From an uncultured Bacilli bacterium (GTDB taxonomy: Bacteria > Bacillota_I > Bacilli_A > RF39 > UBA660), in NCBI GenBank assembly GCA_944372195.1, contig CALVYK010000004.1, positions 9,342 to 73,341 on the forward strand: a stretch of DNA of 64,000 bases, read 5' to 3'. Both the position numbers and the translations under genes were made by a program. Under the pieces are notes generated by a model that ran no database searches, was not told where the DNA came from, and saw only the letters and a program-made list of their open reading frames with translations. Below, in pieces: positions 39,369 through 39,517 of this stretch (positions are counted from its first letter, which is position 1; every line of letters starts with the position of its first letter).

Positions 39369-39517
39369 TGAGTTTTATATTACTTGAATTTTACAGTATC
39401 CAAATAAGAAAACCTATATCTTATTTAAAAGTTTTATATTACTCAAATTTTACAGGGTTTCCTATTATTACTCTTTATGAGGAACCCGAGACCATGATAT
39501 TATTCGTGGTCTTTTTT
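39369..39517 (+). ncRNA. tracrRNA with two tandem anti-repeats
   Basis: Anti-repeats at 39372-39401 and 39431-39468; nexus-like CTC-TTTAT-GAG; terminator GACCATGA..TCGTGGTC plus T-run. Confidence 0.85.

Follow-up and report, generated by a model that had tools for sequence, protein, structure and literature searches.

Trans-activating clustered regularly interspaced short palindromic repeat (CRISPR) RNA, or tracrRNA, is the RNA that defines Cas9 systems, and according to current views array repeats have repeatedly given rise to its anti-repeat. Why, then, would a single tracrRNA gene hold two anti-repeats, side by side and complementary to the same repeat? The question is raised by a compact type II-A CRISPR-Cas locus in an uncultured Bacilli bacterium (contig CALVYK010000004.1), the source assembly of which is a metagenome-assembled genome (MAG) of 1.28 Mb, 87% complete. 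The window, by which we mean the whole 64,000-nucleotide (nt) stretch of DNA that was analyzed, carries on its + strand cas9, the tracrRNA gene, cas1, cas2, a csn2-like gene, and the array. We find that the interval between cas9 and cas1 appears to encode one tracrRNA precursor in which an additional anti-repeat without a bulge (AR1) precedes a canonical one (AR2), and that AR1 is probably a selected pairing element. Our best reading, to which we give a rough probability of 0.42, is that AR1 would act as a 5' module that tethers the precursor to the array transcript, pre-cuts that transcript, and is lost during maturation.

Anatomy of the tracrRNA gene

The cas9-cas1 interval has 186 bases and was read base by base. 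The features within and around it, with positions counted in the window, are as follows.

39334..39362, + strand: promoter-like site TTGACA-17-TAGAAT, 11/12 matches, with the -35 box overlapping the cas9 stop codon
39369..39519, + strand: predicted tracrRNA precursor of ~150 nt, its start placed from the -10 box and its end at the T-tail
39372..39401, + strand: AR1, a 30-nt anti-repeat without bulge, complement of repeat positions 7-36 with 27/30 matches
39402..39426, + strand: linker hairpin with an 8-bp A-U stem, AAATAAGA (39402-39409), 9-nt loop AAACCTATA, and TCTTATTT (39419-39426)
39431..39455, + strand: upper-stem part of AR2, complement of repeat positions 12-36 with 24/25 matches
39456..39471, + strand: bulge GGTT and lower-stem strand TCCTATTATTAC, near-identical across 12 aligned loci, with 0 differences from the related locus L018
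39471..39487, + strand: nexus-like hairpin CTC-TTTAT-GAG, then GAACCC; a two-sided change of CTC/GAG to CAC/GTG in loci L019 and L076 (by alignment reading)
39488..39519, + strand: intrinsic terminator with a 10-bp stem, 6-nt loop, and T-tail (stem-loop 39488-39513; shuffles expect 0.0)

A first-pass annotation, made from the letters of this stretch alone, had described one promoter and one terminator enclosing two anti-repeats, and direct reading together with promoter and terminator scans confirms this. Across 39200-39700, TTGACA-17-TAGAAT is the only + strand promoter-like site upstream of AR2, and 39488-39513 is the only terminator-like site. The scan finds no internal promoter ahead of AR2, where by eye there are a weak TTTACA-19-TATATC and a TATATT without a -35 box. 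The predicted precursor folds at -39.3 kcal/mol, with a z-score of -5.7 against 200 shuffles.

The complementarity of AR1 to repeat positions 7-36 without a bulge is also as originally described. Its three differences from the perfect complement are C12 opposite A25, a C-A mismatch common to AR2, and two G-U pairs, T14 opposite G23 and G15 opposite T22. AR1 starts 9 nt past the -10 box, which is the start of the single anti-repeat in relatives. With a 6-nt insertion permitted, the alignment of AR1 extends over all 36 repeat positions (TATCC-AAATAAG-AAAAC against TATCC-T-AAAAC), and from the alignment AAAAC at 39409-39413 could pair with repeat positions 1-5. The 8-bp hairpin that had been noticed between the anti-repeats is present at 39402-39426 and appears in the minimum-free-energy fold; alone it is weak (-3.8 kcal/mol). 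AR2 as a whole spans 39431-39468, its bulge GGTT facing TA of the repeat with TCCTA next.

An anti-repeat outside the array and within the cas locus is a trait of type II tracrRNAs that is seen here twice, in AR2 (24/25 plus the lower stem) and in AR1 (27/30). The bulge, lower stem, nexus, and terminator stand downstream of AR2, and AR1 is followed only by the weak hairpin. Set 59 nt apart, the two form a direct repeat (26 nt, 92%), each copy of which is complementary to the array repeats. Across the 1.28-Mb assembly, a degenerate anti-repeat pattern occurs twice in the anti-repeat sense, at AR1 and AR2, and 38 times in the opposite sense, in the array, with 0 occurrences of a control pattern; the tandem anti-repeats are not chance. 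An assembly-wide pattern search finds no repeat-sense sequence outside the array, and the assembly, at its 87% completeness, holds no second array with a repeat that better fits AR1.

The same arrangement is found in a sister MAG (locus L018) and in gap-free spanning contigs of runs X3, X7, X15, and X18, which come from four different studies, and it is therefore real DNA and not an assembly artefact. An Rfam search of 39000-44400 with E-values up to 10 returned no match to a tracrRNA family and only two chance-level rows. An open frame at 39368-40402, which begins with GTG at 39368 and runs in phase with cas1 through the tracrRNA region, was rejected as a chance frame, two single-base indels closing it in L018; single-base indels relative to L018 disrupt any reading frame across the precursor.

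The downstream module and the tracrRNAs of relatives

Loci with an orthologous Cas9 were gathered from genome searches and contig scans, and the DNA after cas9 was read in each. Twelve distinct loci were aligned: the window, L018, L011, L015, L019, L022, L023, L025, L035, L073, L074, and L076. L020 and L075 have the same sequence as L019 and were counted once; L077 and L024, which are cut by contig ends, and the split cas9 locus of genome G085 were left out. A common core is present in 12/12 loci and consists of CUCAAAU..ACAG, a GGUU-type bulge, UCCUAUUAUAAC, CUC-loop-GAG, GGAACCC, and a terminator. The terminator stems differ in every one of the 12 loci with pairing kept, and the -35 box overlaps the end of cas9 in all of them. 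In loci with a recovered array, the single anti-repeat is the complement of the locus's own repeat.

AR2 and everything 3' of it is the probable Cas9-binding tracrRNA of this Cas9 clade, because the module aligns in 12/12 loci, 10 of these having the module alone. The annotation had proposed AR2 as the probable Cas9-binding part, and the alignment of its bulge, lower stem, nexus, and terminator with the tracrRNAs of the ten other orthologous loci, each with one anti-repeat, supports that assignment.

By reading, the bases between the predicted start and the anti-repeat pair with the distal anti-repeat in L011, L019, L022, L023, L035, L074, L076, and L077. The resulting 5' hairpin in these single-anti-repeat relatives has 5-9 bp and a different sequence at each locus, and as a structure it seems to be a conserved trait of this clade's tracrRNAs.

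Conservation of the upstream anti-repeat

The only other carrier of AR1 and the hairpin is L018, which lies in a genome of the same genus (G004) and has a Cas9 that is 86% identical. Fourfold-degenerate sites in cas9, cas1, cas2, and csn2 differ between the two at 104 of 255 positions (41%), the nucleotide identity of the genes being 84-91%. Against this background, the differences between the window and L018 along the tracrRNA gene are as follows.

Promoter and leader: 7/35
AR1: 2/30, both pairing-preserving
Hairpin (39402-39426): 0/25
A-run past the hairpin: one base lost (1-nt indel)
AR2 upper stem: 1/25, A17>T, which breaks a pair
Bulge to nexus: 0/32
Terminator 5' arm: 3/10, all of which pair through G-U (by reading)

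AR1 and the linker together make 59 nt with 3 events. Under the fourfold rate the binomial P(<=3) for this is 4e-10, and under the promoter rate it is 0.001; only 9.7% of 59-nt windows within cas9 reach the same conservation. The earlier proposal that AR1 is maintained is upheld in this one genome pair, where AR1 has 2 differences in 30 positions, both keeping pairing, versus the 104 of 255 at fourfold sites.

The kind of change in AR1 is also informative. Its earlier state was deduced from the states of AR2 and the repeat, which gives three substitutions: C14>T in both genomes, A15>G in the window, and C30>T in L018. All three are G-U with the repeat. Changes that keep pairing in this way make up 13 of the 87 possible single changes at paired sites, and the chance that three out of three would do so is 0.003-0.03, depending on the assumed share of transitions. 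The C12 mismatch of both anti-repeats is the older state, since position 25 is G in the repeats of three relatives and A in this lineage. AR1 also has TA facing a lineage-specific TA of the repeat, where relatives have GGATCC, and was thus copied from the repeat of this lineage or co-evolved with it. Elsewhere in the genome the linker is not found, even with up to 3 mismatches allowed. Taken as a comparison of sequences, the case that AR1 and the linker are under selection, with repeat pairing as the selected trait, is fair, not strong.

Pairing with the repeat and a proposed mechanism

The predicted duplexes with the repeat are of similar energy, at -31.1 kcal/mol for AR1 and -30.8 kcal/mol for AR2, with -30.4 and -27.6 kcal/mol in L018. 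Cofolding of the precursor with one spacer-repeat RNA prefers AR1, with -68.2 kcal/mol when free, -57.7 with AR1 blocked, and -59.1 with AR2 blocked. Cofolding with the precursor CRISPR RNA (pre-crRNA) had been suggested as a check in the first-pass annotation, and with a repeat-spacer-repeat RNA both anti-repeats pair, on consecutive repeats: in the minimum-energy structure (-90.2) AR2 takes the upstream repeat and AR1 the downstream repeat. In this complex, the 29-nt linker of the tracrRNA lies opposite the 30-nt spacer and six repeat bases that are left unpaired. When the precursor is folded alone, its first 17 nt (a 3-nt leader and positions 1-14 of AR1) pair with the 3 nt before AR2 and positions 1-14 of AR2. 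This intramolecular stem has no substitutions between the window and L018 and so no covariation support.

These observations can be assembled into a tentative scheme. The cas9-cas1 spacer would encode one precursor of ~150 nt, its 3' two-thirds being an ordinary Cas9-binding tracrRNA (AR2, GGTT bulge, lower stem, nexus, and terminator) and its 5' third a lineage-restricted add-on made up of AR1, right past the predicted start, and the small hairpin. Once transcribed, AR1 would pair with repeat positions 7-36 of the pre-crRNA, and the resulting 30-bp duplex would be cut by RNase III without help from Cas9. Guide-RNA duplexes without a bulge and nexus are not known to support Cas9, and because the AR1 duplex has neither, it should be a substrate of RNase III and not of Cas9. 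An RNase III gene is present in the genome (235.6 bits). Since the strands are antiparallel, one precursor could hold two neighboring repeats, AR1 taking repeat n+1 where AR2 takes repeat n. In this way the precursor would be recruited or tethered by AR1 to the transcript of 39 repeats, which AR1 would also pre-cut, to the benefit of maturation; AR1 would itself be removed as maturation proceeds, and the mature Cas9-bound tracrRNA would derive from AR2. The established part of this scheme comprises the sequence anatomy, its conservation, the thermodynamic feasibility of pairing, and the RNase III gene. A bolder proposal, which we regard as speculative and rather doubtful, is that the bipartite tracrRNA clamps two neighboring repeats, RNase III cutting the array without Cas9 while Cas9 loads the adjacent unit, or that pre-crRNA bound to AR1 unmasks AR2 and so makes tracrRNA maturation a sensor of CRISPR RNA (crRNA) supply.

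Distribution of AR1 and the case against a function

How widely AR1 is shared bears on whether it has such a role. Cas9 was searched in 61 genomes of relatives, 401 of the family, 401 of the order, and 400 of the class that were scored; apart from G004 (86%), no Cas9 above 48% identity was found in them. Scans of genome and metagenome contigs for relatives gave only L018, L019, and L020. A third genome of the genus, G005, with a Cas9 C-terminus that is 47% identical, has one anti-repeat, and a permissive search of the genus with an anti-repeat pattern gave mostly noise, with real sites only in G000, G004, and G005. Nineteen loci were also surveyed for extra anti-repeats with crude identity thresholds. 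An array was present in 15 of them, the other 4 having none in the stretch, and L038, L087, and L091 gave no convincing anti-repeat at threshold; only the window and L018 have two adjacent anti-repeats on the same strand. The two lineages with AR1 have no spacer in common (0 among 38 in the window and 19 in L018), so both arrays have turned over and adaptation continued with AR1 present. The annotation had named absence or random decay of AR1 in related loci as grounds for doubt, and the outcome is divided: AR1 is present in L018, where it looks maintained, and is absent from 10 of the 12 orthologous loci.

Several points weigh against the tethering and pre-cutting role. AR1 and the hairpin occur in only 2 of the 12 evaluable orthologous loci, and in 2 of the 30 genomes of the genus, all of which were searched. 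Because the other 10 loci have no AR1, it is dispensable for the family. Since the carriers are two genomes only, selection is read from one pairwise comparison and three substitutions. Outside one variable block the strain contigs diverge by only ~1.5%, which is too little for a further test. The X3 contig is identical to the window over 38900-39639, and X7 has no difference in 39327-39561 among the 37 of its 38 differences that were listed; differences were listed for all but ~22 in X15 and all but ~3 in X18, so identity of the tracrRNA region in these two is unproven. The 39 inverted repeats could also hold AR1 close to the repeat sequence through gene conversion, in the absence of selection, but this fails to explain the invariant linker, because this has no other copy in the genome. 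Among the 24 runs examined, no RNA run was listed as carrying the locus. Finally, the duplex of AR1 with the repeat has no bulge, lower stem, or nexus, so that AR1 should not load Cas9 and would compete with AR2 for repeats, with an effect that could be neutral or harmful.

A first alternative is that AR1 has been left over, neutrally or nearly so, from a recent insertion or duplication, in which a copy of an inverted repeat or of AR2 came to lie in the tracrRNA leader; it would be tolerated because RNase III removes everything 5' of AR2. Confinement to two genomes would fit such a leftover, as would the substitution C14>T that is common to both and so points to a single-event origin, and array gene conversion could mimic the conservation of AR1. 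In known systems, moreover, the primary 5' part of the tracrRNA is discarded. We nevertheless consider this explanation unlikely, as fourfold sites and the adjacent promoter spacer are both far less conserved than AR1 with its linker. The linker has no donor elsewhere in the genome, yet it is invariant at 25/25 positions, and AR1 retains its three differences from the repeat, which means that no homogenization has occurred recently.

The origin of AR1 can be considered separately from its function. A simple 59-nt tandem duplication was rejected, the 3' halves of the two units being without similarity (46% of shuffles score as well), and so was the linker as a copy of the promoter, 98% of shuffles reaching as high a score. 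Had a spacer been integrated ectopically at the anti-repeat, the period should be 66 nt and both copies should be the same 36 nt, bulge included; this reading was rejected on the observed 59 nt and bulge-less AR1. As a protospacer, the linker has no match in viral contigs; three real control spacers were also unmatched, so this blank carries no weight. In excerpts of PMC6546382, anti-repeats are proposed to be repeatedly recruited from repeats, and a new inverted repeat copy beside an old anti-repeat would fit that idea. AR1 could be a snapshot of anti-repeat renewal, in which a freshly recruited inverted repeat stands by an old, diverged anti-repeat.

Other roles for the 5' segment

The pairing energies would also suit a negative regulator or decoy, in which Cas9-incompetent duplexes titrate pre-crRNA or route it to RNase III, damping crRNA loading or sensing crRNA abundance. 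AR1 binds the repeat at least as well as AR2, it has no bulge or nexus, and repeat binding to AR1 would free AR2 from the intramolecular 17-nt pairing. However, both lineages keep long, turning-over arrays, and the stem on which such sensing would depend is the one that has neither substitutions nor covariation support, which makes a decoy or sensor distinctly unlikely.

A conserved 5' module might instead serve a purpose other than pairing with the repeat, as a structure that stabilizes the precursor, as the initially transcribed region of the promoter, or as a protein-binding site. A 5' structure seems typical of the clade, since the single-anti-repeat relatives start with a hairpin between the leader and the distal anti-repeat (by reading), and the linker is conserved in sequence, beyond its structure. 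Such a purpose would leave 30 nt of near-perfect repeat complementarity with G-U-only substitutions hard to explain, and we hold it to be improbable.

A minus-strand mini-array, giving a crRNA-like regulatory RNA of the small CRISPR-Cas-associated RNA (scaRNA) kind with a 29-nt spacer that targets a promoter, is hardly credible, for although the repeat-like units are 29 nt apart, near the spacer length of 30, and 10.1101/2023.03.03.530964 reports mini-arrays distinct from tracrRNA in ~6% of type II loci, no adjacent minus-strand promoter-like site was seen in the scan of 39200-39700, the would-be handle shows no conservation of its first six repeat positions, and the search for a target of the linker gave none: the linker has no match of at least 13 nt in the window, none upstream of cas9, and no other genome copy.

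The surrounding locus

The tracrRNA gene is embedded in the following set of genes, to which the array is adjoined.

36134..39337, + strand: cas9, 1067 amino acids, TIGR01865 at 411.5 bits over residues 4-1060, the whole length
39524..40402, + strand: cas1, TIGR03639 at 261.5 bits
40399..40740, + strand: cas2, TIGR01573 at 79.9 bits
40727..41602, + strand: divergent csn2-like gene, 291 amino acids, by predicted fold
41628..44169, + strand: CRISPR array of 39 repeats x 36 nt and 38 spacers, with A30>G in the last repeat

The Cas9 falls in the SaCas9/St1Cas9-like clade of short type II-A proteins, its best solved relatives being the Cas9 entries 8hud, 5axw, and 6rj9. The csn2-like protein (40727-41602) has no match in NCBIfam or Pfam, and a PDB sequence search gave one weak match, to a transcriptional regulator (E 0.066). 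Its AlphaFold2 model has a predicted local distance difference test (pLDDT) score of 69.8, and the best Foldseek match is Stu0660 (3zth, E 2.9e-6, template modeling (TM) scores 0.47/0.41), followed by Csn2 of S. pyogenes (3toc, E 2.3e-4); the TM-scores are low, at 0.3-0.47. The product appears to be a Csn2 branch that family libraries miss, its predicted fold being closest to the long Csn2 Stu0660. With moderate confidence, then, the locus has the type II-A gene set of cas9, cas1, cas2, and csn2 beside an array, csn2 being recognized by predicted fold only. Homologues of the csn2-like gene follow cas2 in L018, L036, L037, and L038, with identities of 25-78%.

Transcription of the array is assigned to the + strand, as its last repeat is degenerate (A30>G) and it adjoins the cas genes. 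A segmental duplication lies within it: 42815-43114 and 43277-43576 are identical over 300 nt at a spacing of 462 nt (7 units), and 5 of the 38 spacers are therefore present twice. L085 (G137:C11), a type II-A locus that is more distant yet belongs to the same family, has its cas genes flanked by two arrays (4484-4978 and 10798-11294) that share one repeat.

Other observations concern the flanks and the ends of the genes. An intergenic element of ~70-85 nt occurs three times (32167-32251, 35984-36053, and 44472-44561) with copies 87-94% alike, each upstream of a gene, and two of the copies bracket the entire block from cas9 to the array; it may be a common promoter or leader element, or a recombination scar of an island. 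In the 3' part of cas9, 39227-39270 has ~21 changes plus indels in 44 nt in the X7, X15, and X18 contigs, with surroundings 98-99% identical, and L018 is likewise strongly divergent there. This stretch is judged, from these alignments, to be a hypervariable or recombined patch in the C-terminal part of Cas9, which interacts with the protospacer adjacent motif. The start of cas1 lies a few to ~15 bases past the T-tail of the tracrRNA terminator (39514-39526 in the window; also in L011, L015, L018, L022, L035, and L073). In these same loci cas1 has no visible Shine-Dalgarno sequence, and L019 and L076 have GGAGG or GGTGA in front of the cas1 start. The metagenome runs with DNA of the locus are mostly from chicken gut.

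Comparison with known systems

Should AR1 act as proposed, two anti-repeats competing for the same repeat would add a new layer of control to crRNA maturation, through tethering, cutting that is independent of Cas9, or sensing of crRNA supply. Alternatively, the tandem anti-repeats would represent a rare intermediate in anti-repeat turnover. Even if AR1 is inert, the case still shows the extent of 5' cargo that a tracrRNA precursor tolerates.

The closest comparison is with the canonical type II-A tracrRNAs of the ten single-anti-repeat loci aligned above. They have their own promoter and terminator, lie on the cas9 strand between cas9 and cas1, and consist of an upper-stem anti-repeat of 25 nt followed by the bulge, lower stem, nexus, and terminator, with all of which the AR2 module aligns base by base. 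CRISPR1 of S. thermophilus has a canonical tracrRNA of the same kind, between cas9 and cas1. The difference here is the additional bulge-less 30-nt anti-repeat and hairpin, placed between the promoter and the canonical anti-repeat.

A possibly regulatory 5' extension of the precursor is also found in the long form of the S. pyogenes tracrRNA, tracr-L. In tracr-L, the extension has the sense of the repeat, folds back on the anti-repeat, comes with an upstream promoter of its own, and carries a spacer-like match to the cas promoter (Pcas). In contrast, both copies here are anti-repeat-sense, so that the extension is unable to pair with AR2 as a repeat would, and one promoter-like site is seen. 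No repeat-sense segment that pairs in cis is present, and the linker has no spacer-type match to a cas promoter: its short matches in the window are one of 12 nt and fifteen of 11 nt, none of at least 13 nt, and none of them lies in the region upstream of cas9 (35950-36140). Published work describes tracr-L as a natural single guide and as a repressor of the cas9 promoter.

Type II loci with more than one anti-repeat have been described before. Excerpts of Chylinski 2013 (PMC3737331) report two separate anti-repeats in one type II locus of L. gasseri, and those of the Dooley 2020 preprint report five loci with two anti-repeats or alternative tracrRNAs, attributed to duplication or a second acquisition. 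As far as these excerpts go, the anti-repeats there lie in different intergenic regions as separate candidate genes, whereas here they are 59 nt apart in one predicted transcript. The tracrRNA of type V-K systems does have two segments, termed anti-repeat 1 and anti-repeat 2, in one molecule (PMC12416283, in part); these pair with different parts of one repeat, and here both complement the same part. The literature searched contains no report of tandem, two, dual, double, or duplicated anti-repeats in one tracrRNA, although supplementary tables (Table S2 of Chylinski 2013, and Table S6 and the locus files of the Shmakov 2023 preprint) might list such cases. Judged by its sequence, then, the AR2 module would be a regular and known type II-A tracrRNA, and what appears to be new is the tandem AR1 with its hairpin, so far in one shallow lineage.

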